DNA of 64,000 bases from Patescibacteria group bacterium (GCA_004297735.1 SCTI01000001.1:115467-179466); one strand, 5' to 3'; shown: positions 3,871 to 58,648, counted from the first letter of the stretch. Notes: generated from the letters alone by a model not told the origin. Numbers and translations: made by a program.

Positions 3871-6837
3871 TTAAGCTTCCTGCGAGACCGCCAAGCAGTC
3901 CCATTTACTATCGGCGCTGTTATATATGAACCCTAGGTAGTGCGTCTTACTAATAACGGTAGTTGTTGGCAAAGAGGTCCCAACCGCTCGGTAAATCGCA
4001 TTCCAGGCCAGAGATCTGGCAGTCCCATTATCTTTAATGCGGATAATTAGCGACTGGCCATCGGTTGGTGTCCCGGTTGGCGCGCCGAAGGTGGCGCCAA
4101 CCGCCAGGGCGGTCAGAAGGTAGACATCGGTAGTGTCGGCATTTGGCGTGGGAGTGGAGCTTGAGGTGTTGCTGGATATTCGCTTAGTGATACGCTTGTT
4201 GGTCAGGGTTTGGGTGGCATCGATGTTGGCTACCGAGTTAGCCGCCGTACCGGCCGCAGCAACAATTAGGTTGTCATCGGTCTTGAGGGTGTCGGCAGCT
4301 GAGCGATAAAGGTTGGTGTCAGCTGATGCTCCTTGGCCAAACAATATGCCAGCTCCGGGTGTAGCAGAAGCGGTTGCGCCAATGTAGACTTGGTTTGCGG
4401 TTCCGTTATTGGCGCTTAAATAAGATGCTGATAAAAACTGATCATCGGTTTTTAGGGTGTCAGCGGCGCTTCTATATAAGTTGGTGTCGGTTCCAAATGT
4501 AATACCACTAGCTGCCGTACCAGCGGTGCTACTTAACTGTAGTGTATATGTCGAAGCACCCGCGATACGTACCCCAATATTAGATGAACTACCAGCTGTT
4601 TGAGCTGCGACATCTACGCCATATAGATTGACGGGTACTATTGATCCCAAGCTTGGGGCAGATATATACATCGCTACTGCATTGGTTAGAACCCCGGAGT
4701 CAGTACCAGTGTCAATGCGATTAAACCCTGCGTAGGCAGTACCAATAGTCACTCCTGTAGGGGGAGTGCTTTTAGCAATATTAATAAACCCATACACCAC
4801 CGTTGGGTCGGTAGATGGCTTAAATTCGGGCTGTACCGCTAGGCCACCAGGACCAGCGGCGCTACCTGAAAAAATTGGGCTAACCTGCTGGCCTCTTGCG
4901 TTTGCTGTTGAGGTCGTAGTGGTGCCGGTAACAAGCATAAGTGTACTTGGGTTGGATGTAGGCTCAACACGGAGCATGTCATCTGTCTTTAAGACATCGG
5001 CCGCTGAACGGTAAAGGTTAGTGTCGGTTGCGCTGGCTCCACCGGCTCCCCACTCGTGCTTGCCATCGCCAAAAATTCGAAAGGCGGCGTTTGTATCACC
5101 GTTGATTAAATAGTTTGCTATAAATGCGGTTACAGCTGTTTGTGAACCTTGGAGCGCAACCGTTGTAGCTGTATCGGCAAAAAAACCAACAGCTGCGCGT
5201 AACCTGTCGTCGGTTTTTAAACTATCTGCTGCCGAGCGATACAGGTTGGTATCGGCACCGAACAAAATACCACCGGCAGCGGTTGTGGCACTATCAAACG
5301 TAAGGGCCGAACTAATCGTGGCGCTTGATCCGATTCGGACCTTACCGGAGTTATCGATTCGCATACGCTCGGTTACGGTCGTTGTGCCAGCGGGGGTGGT
5401 GTAGAAAGCCAGGCGTCCTGGCATGTCGGCAGCGGCCGGAGTGCCGTCAACCTCCGCCCGGATTAAGGCCGCAAAGGTGTTTGAGTTTGAGCCGTTAGCT
5501 CCAATAAAACTGATCTGACCAAGGTTATCGCCTGACTGCACAATTGTCGTGGAGCCATTGGCTGTTCCGCGCGATTTTACAAAATATATACCGGGCGGGT
5601 TGGCGTCGGCCGAGTTTCTGGTGGCGGATATGGTGGATCCAGCCGCATCGGTACCTTCTAATTGAAGTTGAGGAATTAGGCCGTTGATTGTTCTGAGAGT
5701 TGTATTGTTGTTGCTAATTAAGGTTGCGCCACTAGGATTGACCGTGATCAGCGATGTACCAGAGTACTGTAAACGATAAGCGGTTGTGGCGGCAGAGGTG
5801 ACATTAAGGCGAATACCAGAGGTATTATTGGTTGAAGTAAACTCCAGGATTGGTGCCGCTGCCGTAAAACGCAGAGTCCCGGTATTGGTCCGGGCAAAGG
5901 TGGAGTCGCCACCAAAAGAAAGACCCCCGCTGGTGCTTGCGTTATCGGGGAACAGTATTTGGGTGCTAGCCCCTGACATATTGAGGCTGCCATTCATGGT
6001 GTCGCCGGTATCATCCACCTTGCCAGCAATTGCACTGGTATTTGCCTTTAGGTCGAGTGCGGCCTGGGTGGCAGTTGAGATTGGTTTACTTAAGTCGGAG
6101 GTATTGTCGACATTGCCCAGGCCTACCGCCGACTTATCTAGCGTTTGCCAGCTTTTGTCGCCCCGCCAGTATTGAAGAGTAGTACCAGCGGTGATAGTTG
6201 GCTCTTTGCCGGCTAAGTCGCTGGTTAGATTGGCGACTTTTGCCTGGGCGATATTGGCGCCAACCGCTACCTCGGTGTCGGTTATGGCTAGCGCAATCTT
6301 GTTTTGAGAGATATTGGCCGAGTTTGATATATCAATATCGAGGATGGTGCTTGGGGCGATTTTGCCGGTAGTAACGGCATCGTCAGCCAGCTTAACCTCG
6401 GTGACCGATCCGTCAATAGGGGTTCGCGCGTTGGTCAAGCGTGAGTCGTCGCCTTTAACAACCTGGGTGGCCGTTGCATCACCGCTAGCGGCAACGTCTT
6501 TAGTGGCGGCGGTTCCCAGGCCCGAGACGTCATTGGTATCGAGTGTGACTGCCCCGGTCTTACCGGCGACACTGGTTACCGGTGCGCCTGGCGGGGCAGA
6601 CCATATACCATCGCCGCGCAAGTAGGTACCAGAGTTGGCAGCGCCGCCGCCAAGTTGACCGGCAACAACTAGCCCCCCGCCATCCAACTCAGCCACACCA
6701 CCAGGTTGGCCTTTTTGGGCAGCAGGAATAGGCTGAATCTTAAGTGAGCCATCATCATTATGCTCAACTTTTAAGAAATCATTAAGTAACTCACCCCATT
6801 GACCATTATCTGATCCTGGAATAGGTAAACGAGTCAT
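3871..6837 (-). CDS. Phage tail-fibre-like giant protein (988 aa): tail-fibre repeat motifs (GLGNVDNTSDLSKPIS, GDTMNGSLNMSG), 4x TNLYRSAADxLKTDD repeats, conserved N-terminal module shared with CDS 24159..26432
   Basis: Motifs read directly from the translation. Repeat copies at about nt 5250, 5022, 4485 and 4317. No N-terminal hydrophobic signal. Confidence 0.65.
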   Translation of the reverse strand: MTRLPIPGSDNGQWGELLNDFLKVEHNDDGSLKIQPIPAAQKGQPGGVAELDGGGLVVAGQLGGGAANSGTYLRGDGIWSAPPGAPVTSVAGKTGAVTLDTNDVSGLGTAATKDVAASGDATATQVVKGDDSRLTNARTPIDGSVTEVKLADDAVTTGKIAPSTILDIDISNSANISQNKIALAITDTEVAVGANIAQAKVANLTSDLAGKEPTITAGTTLQYWRGDKSWQTLDKSAVGLGNVDNTSDLSKPISTATQAALDLKANTSAIAGKVDDTGDTMNGSLNMSGASTQILFPDNASTSGGLSFGGDSTFARTNTGTLRFTAAAPILEFTSTNNTSGIRLNVTSAATTAYRLQYSGTSLITVNPSGATLISNNNTTLRTINGLIPQLQLEGTDAAGSTISATRNSADANPPGIYFVKSRGTANGSTTIVQSGDNLGQISFIGANGSNSNTFAALIRAEVDGTPAAADMPGRLAFYTTPAGTTTVTERMRIDNSGKVRIGSSATISSALTFDSATTAAGGILFGADTNLYRSAADSLKTDDRLRAAVGFFADTATTVALQGSQTAVTAFIANYLINGDTNAAFRIFGDGKHEWGAGGASATDTNLYRSAADVLKTDDMLRVEPTSNPSTLMLVTGTTTTSTANARGQQVSPIFSGSAAGPGGLAVQPEFKPSTDPTVVYGFINIAKSTPPTGVTIGTAYAGFNRIDTGTDSGVLTNAVAMYISAPSLGSIVPVNLYGVDVAAQTAGSSSNIGVRIAGASTYTLQLSSTAGTAASGITFGTDTNLYRSAADTLKTDDQFLSASYLSANNGTANQVYIGATASATPGAGILFGQGASADTNLYRSAADTLKTDDNLIVAAAGTAANSVANIDATQTLTNKRITKRISSNTSSSTPTPNADTTDVYLLTALAVGATFGAPTGTPTDGQSLIIRIKDNGTARSLAWNAIYRAVGTSLPTTTVISKTHYLGFIYNSADSKWDCLAVSQEA

Positions 6838-39047: not shown

Positions 39048-39541
39048 TGCATCGCCACGGTTACAAAGGTCGTAAGTTACAGCGAGCCGCCGGTCCACGT
39101 CGGGCATTGGTGCGAGGTCAGATTACCTCGCTGGTGCTACACGAGCAAATTACGACTACCGTAGCCAAGGCCAAGGAGATCGCTCCTCAGTTCGAAAAAC
39201 TGGTTACCAAGGCTAAAAAGGGTGATTTGCACAATCGTCGTCTGATTCGGGCGGTGTTGCTGACCGATAAGGCTACCACTAAGTTGGTTGAGGAGATCGC
39301 ACCGGCGTTTAAGAATCGAGAAGGTGGTTACACCCGGATTGTTAAGTTGGGGAACCGACTAGGTGATAATGCACCTATGGCTGCGGTTATGTTAACCGAC
39401 AAGCCACAGCGCGTTGCCGAAAAGCCCAAGGCTAAGCCGGCTACCAAAAAGCCAGCAGCCAAGAAGGCGGAAGCCGACTCGGCTAAGGCTAAGAAGCCAG
39501 CCGCCAAAAAGGCACCAGCCAAGAAGGAGGCAGCTAAGTGA
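39047..39541 (+). CDS. rplQ: 50S ribosomal protein L17 with a Lys/Ala/Pro-rich C-terminal extension
   Basis: L17 core followed by a low-complexity KPAAKKA tail of about 45 aa. Confidence 0.93.
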
Positions 39542-54775: not shown

Positions 54776-55783
54776 ATGATGGCAAAGAAGAAAGAAGAGA
54801 TCCAGAACGAAGAAATCGTTACTGACGAGCAGGTTGAAGCTCAGGCCGAGGCTGTAACTGACGAAGCTCCAGCCGATAACGCTGCCAAAGAAAACACCGA
54901 CGAAACCCCAGATGACACGGTTGATGAGGATAGCAAGCCTCGCACCACCAAGGCTGGTAAGCGCAGCGCTAAGGCTCAGCGAGAGGCCGACGAAGAAGAA
55001 GCCCGCAAAGAGGCCGCCAAAGAGGATAAAGAGGCTCCAGTAAAGCCTAAAATCGTTCACACGCCTAACCCAAAGAACCGTCACGGCAAAAACTACTTGA
55101 GCTCCCGTGAGCTGATTGAAGAGGGTAAGTTTTACGAGCTACCTGAGGCAATTGAGCTGGCAAAGAAGACCAGCAAGGTCAAGTTTGATGCTTCGGTTGA
55201 GCTGCATATGAACCTAGGAGTTGATCCTAAGCAGGCCGACCAGATGGTGCGTTCAACCGTGGTGCTTCCAGCTGGTACCGGTAAGACCATTCGCGTGGCC
55301 GTAATTGCTCCAACCGATAAGCATGCCGATGCCAAGAAGGCAGGTGCCGATATCGTCAGCGACGAAGCCCTGGTTGAGACCATTAGCAAGGGCAAGATTG
55401 AGTTTGATACCCTAATTGCCACCCCAGACATGATGGCCAAGCTCAGCAAGGCTGCTAAGGTGCTTGGGCCGCGTGGCTTAATGCCAAACCCTAAGAGTGG
55501 TACTGTGACTGCCAACGTAGCGCAGGCGGTTGAGCAGGCTAAGGCCGGTAAGGTTGAGTTCCGCATCGACAAGCAGGCCATTGTTCACCTGCCGGTCGGC
55601 AAGGTTAGCTTTGCGGATGACAAGCTGCTCGAAAACCTGACTACCGCTATTCAGGCGATCATGAAGGCCAAGCCGGCCGCCGCTAAGGGTACTTACGTCG
55701 AGGCGATCTCGTTGACCACCTCCATGGGCCCTGGCATCAAGATTGATGTCACCAAGGCAATTGCCGCCAGCAACAAACGCTAA
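54776..55783 (+). CDS. rplA: 50S ribosomal protein L1 with a roughly 100-aa acidic/Lys-rich N-terminal extension
   Basis: Start at the ATG ATG 54776 after an AGGAG RBS. The L1 core runs from about KPKIVHTPNPKNRHGKNYL onward; the preceding 100 aa are low-complexity E/D/K/A-rich. Confidence 0.9.
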   Translation: MMAKKKEEIQNEEIVTDEQVEAQAEAVTDEAPADNAAKENTDETPDDTVDEDSKPRTTKAGKRSAKAQREADEEEARKEAAKEDKEAPVKPKIVHTPNPKNRHGKNYLSSRELIEEGKFYELPEAIELAKKTSKVKFDASVELHMNLGVDPKQADQMVRSTVVLPAGTGKTIRVAVIAPTDKHADAKKAGADIVSDEALVETISKGKIEFDTLIATPDMMAKLSKAAKVLGPRGLMPNPKSGTVTANVAQAVEQAKAGKVEFRIDKQAIVHLPVGKVSFADDKLLENLTTAIQAIMKAKPAAAKGTYVEAISLTTSMGPGIKIDVTKAIAASNKR

Positions 55784-55804
55784 AACTACTTTTTAGATCA
55801 TCAA

Positions 55805-55827
55805 GCCGCCCGGTTGGGCGGTTTTTG
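55805..55827 (+). terminator. Rho-independent terminator after rplA
   Basis: gccgccc-ggtt-gggcggt followed by ttttt. Confidence 0.7.
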
Positions 55828-55899
55828 ATCGGGTAACTGTATTTGACTCGGATCTTTTTGAGTAAAACTATTTAGACTTTTTGACTCAAATTGGCTGTG

Positions 55900-56214
55900 T
55901 AAAACTACGTGTGCGCCCAGAGCGCACCCACACGTCGCAGCTGCTTCAAAGGTAATTAGCCCTGCTTCGTGCAGTCGGGGGCTGTAGTACCGGAATGTTC
56001 CGCCGACGTTCGGTGTAAAACGTCGGCCTGTAGGTTGAAGGTTTAACCCTGCTACCGATCCTTGCCGATGGCGAGGCGTTGTGTGCCAGTAGTGGCCTCA
56101 ACACCCATGTGCTTAGACTCTTGTTCTCTTCTGACGAGCGGTCGCAGCACCCAGTATTCTTACTCCTCCGGTAGCCCCCGGCTGATTACTGGCTTCTACG
56201 ATCTAGGAGCAAAC
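55900..56214 (+). ncRNA. Candidate structured non-coding RNA immediately upstream of the RT gene (retron msr-msd-like or DRT-type ncRNA candidate)
   Basis: GC-rich, about 315 nt, no credible ORF. Perfect hairpins gtgcgc-ccaga-gcgcac (55911-55927) and gccgacg-ttcggtgtaaaa-cgtcggc (about 55996-56026). Long-range inverted repeat cagtcgggggctg (55972-55984) / agcccccggctg (56173-56184), 11/13 complementary. Confidence 0.4.
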
Positions 56215-57258
56215 ATGCCCCTTCACAACACCGGCCAGCTTGAGCTTGAGCTGGAAGCGTTGATGGAGGAGCCGCTGTTTCACTCCTTCATCCATAAAGA
56301 TGTAAATCGACTCTCTGGAAACGTTAAGTTTCGGCGGGTTTCAGCGCCCAATAAAGCGATGCGCAAGATTCACTTGCAGATTCGAGCGGCGTTGAGCCGG
56401 CTTGATGTTGAAATGCCATACGTCACCGCTGGGCTTCGCAAATCCAAAGTGGTCAACCACGTCAAGGCACATCGTGGCAATCAGTACCTGTGTTGCTATG
56501 ATCTGAAGGCCGCGTATGATCACGTCCGGCCAGAAGCGATGGCTGACATCTTGCGCCAACATGGGTTGCCGGAGTCAGACATTGAACTTGTAGCTCGATA
56601 CTGCTTCGGTAATGAAAGCGGTGGATTGGTGACGGGTGGGCTGGTTTCAGTTCAGCTGTTCAACCTGTACGCCAATGAGGTAATCGACCAGCCGCTCGCA
56701 ACGTTGTTTGCCGAGCGAGGCGGCATCACCTATACCCGTTACATTGATGACCTGATTATCTCCTCGGGTGCTCCGATCGGGAGACGGTTCCGTAGGTCGA
56801 TCCTGCAAATCATTCGGGCGGCTGGGTTCGAGATCAAGCCGGCTAAAACACAGCTAATTGATCTGGCGGCCGAGCATAGTCAGATGGCGGTACTCAACGG
56901 GATTGGGCTCGACCTGAACGGCGAGCTGCACGTAAGGCCGCATTATCGCGAACTGCTCTACAGGCTTATCAAGAGAGCTCAGGCAGGAGAGATTGACCCG
57001 AGTGTCGTCCACGGGTGCATGGGGGCGTTTTACGTCATCAAGCCGCGTGGGCAGCAAATGACTCCAGGCGAGCGCAAGCTGGATCGAGCCTATCGCTGGT
57101 ATGTTAATCAGCAGCGGCGAGCAGATCCTGGCCGACCCGAGCGCCGGAGGCGCAAGCAGCAGCAGTATCGCGCCCGGCGACGACTCAAGCCAAGCTATAA
57201 GCGGCATGGTCGCCGTAGCGGACCGGTTGGCACGTACCGACCAAGACCGACTTTTTAA
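56215..57258 (+). CDS. Compact reverse transcriptase (347 aa; RT domains 1-7, YIDD active site, no maturase/endonuclease domain, Arg-rich C-terminal tail)
   Basis: Motifs: KFRRVSAPNKAMRKIH (1), CCYDLKAAYDHV (2), GGLVTGGLVSVQLFNLYANEV (3/4), YTRYIDDLII (5), GFEIKPAKTQLI (6). Start placed at ATG 56215 with an upstream TAGGAGC RBS. The track ORF begins at 56062, but that N-terminal stretch is Cys/Ser-rich low-quality sequence overlapping the structured RNA. Confidence 0.75.
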   Translation: MPLHNTGQLELELEALMEEPLFHSFIHKDVNRLSGNVKFRRVSAPNKAMRKIHLQIRAALSRLDVEMPYVTAGLRKSKVVNHVKAHRGNQYLCCYDLKAAYDHVRPEAMADILRQHGLPESDIELVARYCFGNESGGLVTGGLVSVQLFNLYANEVIDQPLATLFAERGGITYTRYIDDLIISSGAPIGRRFRRSILQIIRAAGFEIKPAKTQLIDLAAEHSQMAVLNGIGLDLNGELHVRPHYRELLYRLIKRAQAGEIDPSVVHGCMGAFYVIKPRGQQMTPGERKLDRAYRWYVNQQRRADPGRPERRRRKQQQYRARRRLKPSYKRHGRRSGPVGTYRPRPTF

Positions 57259-57259
57259 C

Positions 57260-57287
57260 CCCGCGCGTGGTAGCCACTACGCGCGGG
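57260..57287 (+). terminator. Hairpin immediately after the RT stop (cccgcgcgt-loop-acgcgcggg); weak T-tract
   Basis: 9-bp GC-rich stem seen directly. Confidence 0.4.
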
Positions 57288-57421
57288 AGTTTCGTTTAAT
57301 GAATAAATTATGTGTCTGCTACTTGGCTTTAATAACTGGTATTATTCCGCCCTCAAACCTGGTTTAATCAATATTTAATTATGTTTTGGCAGACTGTATT
57401 GTATTAAATAAGGACGCAGAA

Positions 57422-57625
57422 ATGGGGGCAGAAAAAGTATCGTTTGAGGGGGTTCTAGAGCGGTTGCGAGATGTTGAGGTTAAGTTTGAAAACCTTAGGG
57501 CTAACACTGAGGGCATTACAAAAGACATCCTGGCAGATACCAATAATATGCCAACGTACGAAAGAAGACTCAAGAAGCTGGAGTCAGCAGTTGCGGTGCT
57601 GCAGCGGCTTAAACAAAGGAGGTAA
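57422..57625 (+). CDS. Small coiled-coil protein (67 aa), first gene of a translationally coupled pair downstream of the RT
   Basis: ATG 57422 with an AAGGA RBS. Its stop TAA lies inside the AAGGAGG RBS of the next gene. Lower GC than the RT. Confidence 0.45.
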   Translation: MGAEKVSFEGVLERLRDVEVKFENLRANTEGITKDILADTNNMPTYERRLKKLESAVAVLQRLKQRR

Positions 57626-57628
57626 TAT

Positions 57629-57955
57629 ATGAGCCAGAAAGTTTTCACCTACAAAGGGATTACTATTGATATTGATAGCCCGAGAGATAGTTCCATTTTT
57701 CGTTTGATACCAGTAGAAAAAGTTGATAGTGAGTGGCGCAGTCTGCATTGGGGGTACCAGTGGTACCGCAGTCGCTTGGCGATTGCGTTGAGATTGTGGG
57801 GGATGAATGACGAAGCTAAGGAGACTTTCGAGAAGCTTATTGAGATTGAAAATAACGTTAAAGATGGCTATGTCCCTCCATATGACCGTGCAGCTGAAGA
57901 AAGGAAGGAGCACGAAGAGTACATAAAAGCCGTCTTTGGTTCGGTCCAGAGTTGA
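57629..57955 (+). CDS. Small hypothetical protein (108 aa), second gene of the coupled pair
   Basis: AAGGAGG RBS 7 nt upstream. Confidence 0.5.
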   Translation: MSQKVFTYKGITIDIDSPRDSSIFRLIPVEKVDSEWRSLHWGYQWYRSRLAIALRLWGMNDEAKETFEKLIEIENNVKDGYVPPYDRAAEERKEHEEYIKAVFGSVQS

Positions 57956-57980
57956 CAAACATCGGTTCAACAGATACAAT
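57952..57980 (+). promoter_or_regulatory. Consensus sigma70 promoter for rplJL (TTGACA -17- TACAAT)
   Basis: ttgaca at 57952-57957 and tacaat at 57975-57980. Confidence 0.6.
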
Positions 57981-57984
57981 CATT

Positions 57985-58117
57985 GAGATTACTGAAGACC
58001 GGAGCGGCCGCAAAGCTTAATCAGCTCCCGAGGTACATTAGATTTCATGCTGCGTTCATGAATATTTAATGAGACGTCTTCGGCTAATCGCCGAATTTTT
58101 TGTTTTTGGAGACCAAG
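57985..58117 (+). promoter_or_regulatory. L10 (rplJ) leader with an attenuator hairpin (ttcggc-taatc-gccgaa + ttttttgttttt at 58079..58107)
   Basis: Structured 5' UTR of about 130 nt in the position of the L10(L12)4 autoregulatory leader. Confidence 0.5.
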
Positions 58118-58648
58118 ATGGCAATTACTCGACAGCGAAAAGAAGAGACCGTAGCTCAGCTCCAGGATACCCTGGGACAGCTAAAGTTAATGGTAATGAC
58201 CGACTACCGTGGTTTAACGGTGCCGGAAATTACTGAGTTGCGTGGTAAGCTTCGCGATTCGGGTGTGAACTACTCGGTTACCAAAAACACCCTGTTACGG
58301 ATTGCGGCGAAGAACACGCCCAACCTAGCAGACATCGACCCAGCAACCTTTACCGGCCCGATGGCTTTGGCCATTTCGACCGAGGACGAGGTTGAGCCAG
58401 CTCGCGTGGTATTCCAGTACGCCAAAGAGCACAAGGCGCTCGAAATCGTTGGTGCTATCACCGGCGACGGACAGCTACTGAGCCCAGCCGAGGTTAAGGC
58501 GCTGGCAACTCTACCGACTCGCGAGCAGCTTATTGCTCAGGTGGTTGGCACGATTGCCGCACCTTTGAGTGGTTTGGTTGGTGTAATGGGTGCCAATGTT
58601 CGCGGTATTGTTACCGTACTCAACGCAATTAAAGAAGCAAAAGAATAA
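58118..58648 (+). CDS. rplJ: 50S ribosomal protein L10
   Basis: Start at [10 protein letters not shown] (ATG 58118). Confidence 0.93.

Follow-up and report, generated by a model that had tools for sequence, protein, structure and literature searches.

The window analysed here is a 64,000-nt stretch of DNA from a Patescibacteria group bacterium (GCA_004297735.1, SCTI01000001.1:115467-179466), a Saccharibacteria-like member of the candidate phyla radiation (CPR) with a tiny genome, and it raises the question of what a reverse transcriptase (RT) gene is doing within a string of ribosomal-protein genes. The gene order is secE-nusG-rplK-rplA, an island, and then rplJ-rplL-dnaX; the island contains, in order, about 390 nt without a conserved open reading frame (ORF), the RT gene, a terminator-like hairpin, an AT-rich stretch and two coupled ORFs. 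Retrons are tripartite defence systems comprising 13 types, nearly all of them from cultivable phyla. We lean, without great confidence, towards a joint interpretation: that the RT and a structured non-coding RNA (ncRNA) upstream of it make up a retron-like cassette of about 1.45 kb, self-contained and open to horizontal exchange, lodged in an exchange hotspot, and that the RT family is a branch of the retron RT superfamily that is specific to Patescibacteria and has yet to be classified. The cassette is probably effector-less or effector-variable, and its role is probably antiviral. Coordinates are positions in the window, which was compared with related loci (L001 and so on); the close loci are L001-L004, L091 and L095, and L095/L096 were joined to L003 at 97.6% identity. 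In the literature we found no description of this RT clade, its ncRNA or its location between rplA and rplJ.

Lineage of the reverse transcriptase

A preliminary description of the window, made from its sequence, had recognised a standalone RT of 347 aa with a YIDD box and without maturase or endonuclease domains, for which a retron was one of the options named, and our analysis upholds this reading. RVT_1 is the only Pfam domain in the ORF at 56215-57258 (1.5e-19), the YIDD catalytic box occupies residues 176-179, and Asp96, Asp178 and Asp179 are invariant across the family. Neither a maturase (X) nor an endonuclease (En) domain was found with Pfam or NCBIfam. At the C-terminus lies a conserved, family-specific arginine-rich tail of about 60 residues, part helical and part disordered. 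With dN/dS ratios of 0.11-0.34 the gene is under purifying selection, and its sequence indicates a catalytically intact enzyme of the retron lineage.

Retron RTs lead the profile and fold searches alike. The top NCBIfam match is the retron St85 RT (77 bits), and the top PADLOC matches are all retron RT models. When the family profile was searched against PDB sequences, the retron RTs Ec83 (7.7e-33), Ec86 (3e-28) and Ec78, Kva2 and Ec67 (1e-19 to 1e-24) stood well ahead of group II RTs (3e-7), the defence-associated RTs (DRTs) DRT9 (3e-7), DRT2 (1.3e-6) and DRT3a (1e-4), and AbiK (6e-3). The AlphaFold2 (AF2) model of the RT has a mean predicted local distance difference test score (pLDDT) of 83.8, and each of its best 18 Foldseek matches in the PDB is a retron RT. 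On this profile and model evidence the RT is a member of the retron RT lineage, at the level of the superfamily only. The preliminary description had also offered a DRT2/DRT9-type RT as an option; the PDB ranking speaks against it, as does a score of 22.8 bits on the NCBIfam Drt2 model NF041746, for which the cutoff is 390.

That the gene is a remnant of a group II intron, or belongs to a diversity-generating retroelement (DGR) as had likewise been suggested, seems to us scarcely credible. The RVT_1 domain is compatible with either, and DGRs contribute some 80% of CPR RTs, among which retron-type RTs are a minority (PMC8632793); nothing further speaks for these origins. The group II RT/maturase model TIGR04416 gives 29.6 bits against a cutoff of 300, and Rfam shows no group II intron domain at E<=10 in 55000-58500; neither the maturase-type RT nor the intron domains V/VI to which the preliminary description had drawn attention were found. 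The 64-kb window contains no template-repeat/variable-repeat (TR/VR)-type repeat of the region, and DGR RTs rank 44th or lower in the Foldseek search. Both origins were rejected on these grounds.

Scores of the window RT and ten relatives are flat across the PADLOC retron RT models, at 40-110 bits, with RT_VI or RT_II-A barely ahead. RT_VI is the top model for the window RT and for six of the ten relatives; the 86 bits that it gives the window RT only just exceed the scores of RT_II-A and RT_III-A. As a calibration, Bacteroidota type VI RTs that the same motif search recovered reach 207-250 bits with RT_VI (1e-62 to 1e-75) and keep a margin of 50-70 bits over the next type. For 66 representatives drawn from the wider family, the lowest E-value against any type model is 2.7e-36 (RT_II-A), and RT_VI reaches 1.2e-32 at best. 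Retrons carry a 'VTG' signature in RT motif 7 (PMC8632793), of which just the G is retained here: the window has LNG at this position, and the family consensus has INGIGL. The flat type scores, the calibration and the (L/I)NG motif therefore indicate an RT of retron lineage that is a member of no modelled type, and by the same sequence comparisons it lies outside the type VI clade; the earlier suggestion of a family not yet classified was a fair one. Because of the low type scores and the replacement of VTG, priming from a 2'-OH in the manner of retrons cannot be assumed.

The family is large. A word-indexed search returned only ten relatives of the RT, and an exhaustive HMMER search of 1.84 billion cluster representatives returned 384 clusters (50% identity) at E<=1e-30, the best 150 of which each score at least 196 bits. 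Relatives among GTDB species representatives, at 31-37% identity, come from metagenome-assembled genomes of Saccharibacteria, Berkelbacteria, Harrisonbacteria, Paceibacterota and other Patescibacteria; the contig of one relative is binned as Gammaproteobacteria. One CPR entry, from Ca. Levybacteria, has already been listed under type VI and gave no detectable single-stranded DNA in E. coli (10.64898/2026.04.27.721009). We also note that two family members from Paceibacterota/Parcubacteria (L024:4926-6197 and L025:5004-6248) carry a C-terminal CHC2 (DnaG primase-type) zinc finger and match the PADLOC model RTasDnaG-like at 2.8e-16, an RT-primase-finger fusion inside the same clade.

A conserved structured RNA upstream of the RT gene

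Some 330 nt of ORF-free, hairpin-bearing sequence ahead of the RT gene had been noted in the preliminary description and taken for a structured ncRNA. The region 55828-56214 holds no conserved in-frame ORF and folds at -148.9 kcal/mol (z = -4.86), an energy matched by none of 100 shuffles; it is not, however, especially GC-rich, as had been stated, since its G+C content is 52% and that of the whole window 51%. The sequences upstream of the RT in L001, L002, L003 and L004, and a fragment of L091, can be aligned with this region. R1, a covariance model built from five sequences (the window and L001, L002, L003 and L004), scores 279 bits in the window and 189-277 bits in the other four loci. Across the five sequences 92% of cells are paired and 18 pairs show compensatory changes, compared with 7.3 +/- 2.2 in shuffles (0 of 500 reach 18) and 3-5 in slid controls, which bears out the proposal of a structured RNA.

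From 5' to 3' the predicted fold consists of a small stem-loop, P1, a bulge, P2, variable hairpins, P4, P5, P6, the single-stranded CCAGUA, the P1 3' arm and a hairpin that holds the Shine-Dalgarno (SD) sequence of the RT (Table 1). The G, A, G and U of the bulge are invariant in the five sequences, the RTs of which are only 44-84% identical; in distant loci the bulge sequence differs. Within the variable region the minimum-free-energy structure places hairpins at 56002-56027 and about 56030-56054. The 43 nt of P4/P5 show few or no differences among the window, L001, L002 and L003, four loci with RTs that are 62-84% identical and RT dS values of 0.9 to >1.8, and in L004 (RT 44% identical) P4 is kept by way of five compensatory pairs. 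We consider P4/P5 to be the likely recognition site of the RT. P6 (42 nt), the hairpin nearest a2, is the weakest helix, with 79-80% of its cells paired. A second GCUUC, at 55943-55947, is able to pair with the same RT SD. Taken as sequence comparisons, these results show an ncRNA that co-evolves, has a retron-like architecture and is more strongly constrained than the RT protein.

A small protein hidden in the ncRNA, whether an SP-like toxin or an N-terminal extension of the RT from TTG 56062, was considered and rejected as coding. ORFs of 31-81 codons occur on both strands of the ncRNA in all relatives; their frames are shifted by indels, they have no SD, and the peptides are not conserved outside the invariant RNA core. 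No Rfam family matches the ncRNA in the window or in seven related loci. An exact 17-mer of the invariant hairpin gave 31 matches in JGI metagenome contigs and 7 in IMG/VR, all by chance. Upstream of a 37%-identical RT, L006 has two tandem ncRNA-like units (5300-5566 and 5738-5970, identical in L007), each closed by a GGUCU(A/G)GGGGG / CCCCCUAGACC helix and holding a GCUAC-NCAC-GUAGC hairpin; the same hairpin is present in L017.

Boundaries of the island and exchange at the rplA-rplJ gap

The rplA stop codon is at 55783 and rplJ occupies 58118-58648. Between them, homology of the window with L094 ends at 55846 and restarts at 57951 (blastn), giving the extent of the island in Table 1. The rplA terminator and the separate rplJ promoter of the preliminary description are both present, the former within a few bases of where it had been placed. 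The latter (TTGACA-17-TACAAT at 57952-57980) agrees with the consensus at 11 of 12 positions, is conserved in four relatives and runs into the L10 leader; the Rfam L10_leader match (57974-58110) scores 43.6 bits in the window and lies above the gathering score in L001-L004. These two signals, a terminator and a promoter, insulate the gap. L002 and L091 share the hairpin downstream of the RT, and L001 and L003 have a variant of it. Because this conserved hairpin follows the RT and, in L002, the rplJ promoter comes directly next (about 25 nt or less past it), we place the end of the cassette there. At the other edge, the TTGACT-type hexamer of the putative cassette promoter is kept in four of four close loci, L003 included despite its different upstream neighbour; the consensus scan missed this region because its hexamers are spaced by 14-16 nt. 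The promoter-like segment is duplicated in the window only (55854-55910), giving about 37 nt more than in L001, L002 and L003, with the direct repeats CTTTTTGA(G/C)T(A/C)AAA and TG(A/T)GTAAAACTA.

Table 1. Features of the island and its edges, in window coordinates
Feature	Position	Strand	Basis or remarks
rplA intrinsic terminator, left edge of hotspot	55804-55827	+	GCCGCCC/GGGCGG hairpin, then T-run; kept in L001, L002 and L004
Cassette promoter-like region (putative), AT-rich, TTGACT...TAAAAC, duplicated in the window	55838-55906	+	Direct repeats D2, D6, D11
Entire variable island (RT cassette and small-ORF module)	55847-57950	+	blastn against thyX-carrying L094
RT cassette, ~1.45 kb (promoter-like region, ncRNA, RT, terminator)	~55847-57290	+	
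Conserved structured ncRNA, ~280 nt, retron msr-msd-like	55937-56214	+	Covariance model R1
P1 5' arm (a1-like), pairs with 56173-56183	55973-55983	+	11 bp, 100% of cells paired, 3 compensatory pairs
5-nt bulge G(U/A)AGU right after P1; candidate priming (branching) G	55984-55988	+	
P2 5' arm, pairs with 56167-56172	55989-55994	+	6 bp, 4 of 6 compensatory
Variable hairpin region	55995-56059	+	Length and sequence vary; ~50 nt longer in L003; alignments A3, A4
Near-invariant hairpins P4 (56060-56076) and P5 (56078-56102)	56060-56102	+	Candidate RT recognition site
Hairpin P6 (loop CUUCUUC conserved), with single-stranded CCAGUA (56151-56166) after it	56109-56150	+	
P1 3' arm (a2-like)	56173-56183	+	Ends 31 nt ahead of RT start codon
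Small hairpin predicted to sequester RT SD (GCUUC/GGAGC)	56192-56210	+	Helix 9, 2 compensatory pairs
Retron-like RT, 347 aa, with Arg-rich C-terminal tail of ~60 aa	56215-57258	+	Profile, fold, dN/dS 0.11-0.34
Terminator hairpin, right edge of RT cassette	57260-57287	+	12-bp stem and T-rich tail
Non-coding stretch upstream of orf67, possibly regulatory	57330-57421	+	~90% identical to L001:7150-7248
orf67, 67 aa, predicted coiled-coil orphan	57422-57625	+	43% identical in L001; dN/dS 0.21
orf108, 108 aa, orphan, translationally coupled to orf67	57629-57955	+	61% identical in L001
rplJ promoter and L10 leader, right edge of hotspot	57952-58110	+	

The preliminary description had treated rplKAJL as an invariant block; in this genus the rplA-rplJ gap is variable. 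The gap cargo of close relatives, located via rplA, is the RT cassette with the small ORFs in the window and L001, the RT cassette alone in L002, the RT cassette with dcd in L004, thyX alone in L094, and thyX with dcd in L092/L093. In L095/L096 genes for a nucleotidyltransferase, dCMP deaminase, HIT protein, folA and thyA precede the RT cassette, and the same thyA island is seen in L097-L101, where the locus stops ahead of rplJ. L004 and L092 have flanks that are 93-95.5% identical over >5 kb, and 1,344 nt of ncRNA and RT (L004:2723-4066) are cleanly replaced by 1,162 nt with thyX (L092:5050-6211). A second set of paired swap coordinates is L094:5060-6198 (thyX) and L002:2318-3761 (RT cassette). 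No tblastn match to thyX, thyA, folA, dcd or dCMP deaminase was found in the 64-kb window. Between L001 and L002 the flank dS is 0.2-0.5 and the RT dS is 1.8; between the window and L002 the RT and flank values are equal. Because of the difference between flank and RT dS and the clean replacement of one cargo by the other, the history of the RT is incongruent with that of its host. The element is absent from close relatives, and the view that it was acquired has held up. Cassettes are presumably exchanged by homologous recombination through the ultra-conserved ribosomal genes.

The position might instead reflect a domesticated role, such as modulation of rplJL expression or a part in dTMP/dNTP metabolism. 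In five of five close loci the rplJ promoter and L10 leader come immediately after the RT, L003 included, where rplA is not the left neighbour, and the same gap accommodates thymidylate-synthesis genes, RT and thyX being precisely interchangeable. Distant family members are found, however, in unrelated contexts (sortase, ftsX, tRNAs, ABC transporters), which argues against a role tied to the ribosomal genes. The cassette is moreover insulated by its own terminator and the rplJ promoter, close relatives manage without it, and a recombination hotspot between ultra-conserved genes is the simpler account; a positional role is in our opinion very unlikely. As to tRNAs, the RT cassette adjoins a tRNA gene in two distant loci: a tRNA-Leu(CAA) lies upstream of it in L005 (5472-5558), and a tRNA lies 230 nt downstream of it in L006 (7148-7218).

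The two coupled small ORFs of the preliminary description, orf67 and orf108, are real and conserved in L001. They are separated by 3 nt, GGAGG stands ahead of orf108, and the orf108 stop codon falls within the rplJ -35 hexamer. Both are under purifying selection. Neither belongs to a Pfam, PADLOC, NCBIfam or PHROGs family; among 5.8 billion proteins the sole match to orf108 was itself, annotated 'Patescibacteria group bacterium' at NCBI, and its single-sequence AF2 model is of low confidence (pLDDT 57). The non-coding stretch upstream of orf67 is better conserved between the window and L001 than the adjacent coding regions, which are only 55-68% identical, and its fold is no better than those of shuffles (z = +0.64). 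A conserved in-frame TTG extension (LADC[IT]VLNKD[AV]EM) suggests that the true start of orf67 may be at 57386.

Were these ORFs the effector of the system, or a toxin-antitoxin pair, the locus would be a classical tripartite retron, and relatives lacking the pair would be degenerate forms of it. Compared between the window and L001, the two ORFs (43-61% identity) have diverged to an extent similar to the RT (64%, dS saturated), with flanks that are much closer (83-97%), which suggests that the island moved as one unit and that orf67/orf108 may travel with the cassette. L091 (RT 71% identical) opens a possibly related ORF past its terminator, of which 20 aa are visible, and the region upstream of the module is strongly conserved. 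The small ORFs nevertheless form a second module, between the RT terminator and the rplJ -35 hexamer, and are divided from the RT by that conserved terminator and a separate AT-rich control region. They occur in two, possibly three, of the six close loci (the window, L001 and perhaps L091) and are absent from L002, L003/L095 and L004; the RT most closely related to that of the window, in L002 (84% identity, with the same dS as the flanks), persists without them at a dN/dS of 0.11. No match to a known effector, toxin or helix-turn-helix (HTH) family was found for them, nor any homologue beside another RT. We regard the tripartite reading as quite unlikely, and orf67/orf108, which the preliminary description had made an integral part of the cassette, as an optional add-on that may be a local effector or toxin module.

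Two further features of the window are recorded here. Ribosomal protein L1 (54779-55783) has 334 aa, of which about 100 form an acidic, lysine-rich extension at the N-terminus; this extension is common to the relatives (320-374 aa) and is the least conserved portion of the protein. At 39434-39534 a 15-nt-periodic repeat (AAGCCAGC...AAGAAGG) codes for a Lys/Ala/Pro-rich low-complexity stretch.

Proposed working and relation to known systems

Several observations weigh against a retron-like cassette. The scores on retron-type hidden Markov models (HMMs) are low beside those of true type VI RTs and motif 7 departs from VTG, as described above. R1 finds only its own close set, with no match in L005-L030, and because it misses the distant loci homology of the ncRNA there is argued from architecture. 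In favour of the cassette, eight of 22 loci (the seven distant loci L009, L010, L011, L013, L017, L022 and L025, and L004) have a helix immediately ahead of the RT that joins sequences over 190-300 nt by 11-15 Watson-Crick pairs, more than in any of 40 shuffles; against it, 12-14 of the 22 loci do no better than shuffles in this crude, ungapped helix test. Within the RNA, P2 extends the helix beyond the bulge and the variable hairpins precede the conserved ones on the 5' side, so that the msr and msd assignments of classical retrons cannot be carried over. Finally, no neighbour gene is common to 25 RT-family loci and L002 has space for no effector, and retron defence systems do not typically lack a conserved effector in this way.

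Since the cassette has no fixed effector, two rivals stay in consideration: the local tripartite system with orf67/orf108 discussed above, and a two-component RT-ncRNA system of the DRT2/DRT9 kind. In the latter a bioactive (long or repetitive) cDNA or an encoded peptide would arrest the infected cell, or the arginine-rich tail would itself be the effector. Such a system would fit the L002 cassette, which stands alone between essential genes without an accessory ORF, the terminator with which the cassette ends in L003/L095, L004 and L091, and the lack of a conserved neighbour. It would also give a function to the conserved, family-specific tail, and the closure of the whole ncRNA into a loop by P1/P2 could in principle permit template jumping. 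Retron RTs, however, are much closer matches to this RT than are DRT2, DRT9 or DRT3, and no conserved stop-free frame runs through the ncRNA, the ORFs on both strands changing frame and protein between relatives. Nor is the absence of an effector diagnostic, since an effector gene or fused domain is recognised in about 75% of catalogued retrons and about a quarter have none (PMC8632793). We judge this alternative unlikely, although worth keeping in mind.

If the locus is the retron-like cassette that we prefer, it would be transcribed as a single RNA, the ncRNA part of which would fold with its 5' and 3' ends paired through P1/P2, like a1/a2 of retrons. The RT would bind the near-invariant P4/P5, with its thumb and arginine-rich tail as the likely contacts, would prime from the invariant bulged G beside P1 and would copy part of its own ncRNA into a cDNA resembling multicopy single-stranded DNA (msDNA). 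The resulting RNA-DNA-RT complex would have an accessory function, most likely antiviral, with no effector fixed to the cassette and orf67/orf108 optional here. A bolder proposal, which we put forward tentatively and think improbable, is that of a new Patescibacteria-wide, retron-derived system without a protein effector, in which RT and ncRNA would suffice, acting via the cDNA product or the arginine-rich tail, and which would be compact enough for homologous recombination to pass it between streamlined genomes, into their 'safe-harbour' gaps. More speculatively, the alternation with thyX and the dcd/thyA/folA neighbourhood might reflect a link to the thymidylate/dNTP pool.

The analysis points to a sizeable CPR-restricted retron-like branch with its own conserved ncRNA and no fixed effector. 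Surveys with high-score cutoffs would miss this branch because type-level HMMs score only 70-110 bits; the cutoff of the SPIRE survey was 160 bits on its own general retron RT model (10.64898/2026.05.14.725207). If the cassette makes cDNA, it would be among the most compact retron-like units known and of interest both for effector-free RT-ncRNA working and for retron-based genome editing. The locus is also a clean natural case of cassette swapping (RT against thyX) within the ribosomal-protein string of an ultra-small genome.

Comparison with known systems indicates partial likeness to three. With DRT2/DRT9 the locus shares a structured ncRNA directly upstream of a single RT without a protein effector, as in L002; it differs in the RT, which scores far below the Drt2 cutoff and which the PDB search places nearer to retrons (1e-28 to 1e-33) than to DRT2 (1e-6) or DRT9, and in having no endless ORF or homopolymer template evident in the ncRNA. 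Type VI retrons (Retron-Vpa2 and Retron-Sen3; clade 3 of Mestre et al. 2020) supply the top PADLOC model, and their ncRNA is similar in its stem-loop just ahead of the 5' repeat and in sequestration of a ribosome-binding site (10.64898/2026.04.27.721009; 10.1101/2025.10.22.683967). Here, in contrast, the sequestered site is that of the RT itself, no Cro/C1 HTH match was obtained on any island ORF, no SP toxin ORF lies between ncRNA and RT, there being no conserved in-frame ORF in the 390 nt upstream, and the RT_VI score falls far below the Bacteroidota range.

The closest solved structures and sequences are those of the classical retrons (Ec86/Eco1, Ec83 and Ec78/Eco7). The locus departs from these in the (L/I)NG of motif 7, the added arginine-rich tail, the absence of a conserved effector gene and of an Rfam msr-type match, the continuation of P2 past the candidate branch G, and the reversed order of conserved and variable hairpins. 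It resembles them in its compact RT (about 300 aa), which has a thumb and lacks extra domains, in the NAxxH-type motif of family members (NAQRH in P0007-P0009), and in an ncRNA that lies immediately upstream on the same strand, with its ends paired in an a1/a2-like helix, a G beside the closing helix that is conserved in the five close sequences and is a candidate branch point, and the RT gene about 30 nt downstream.

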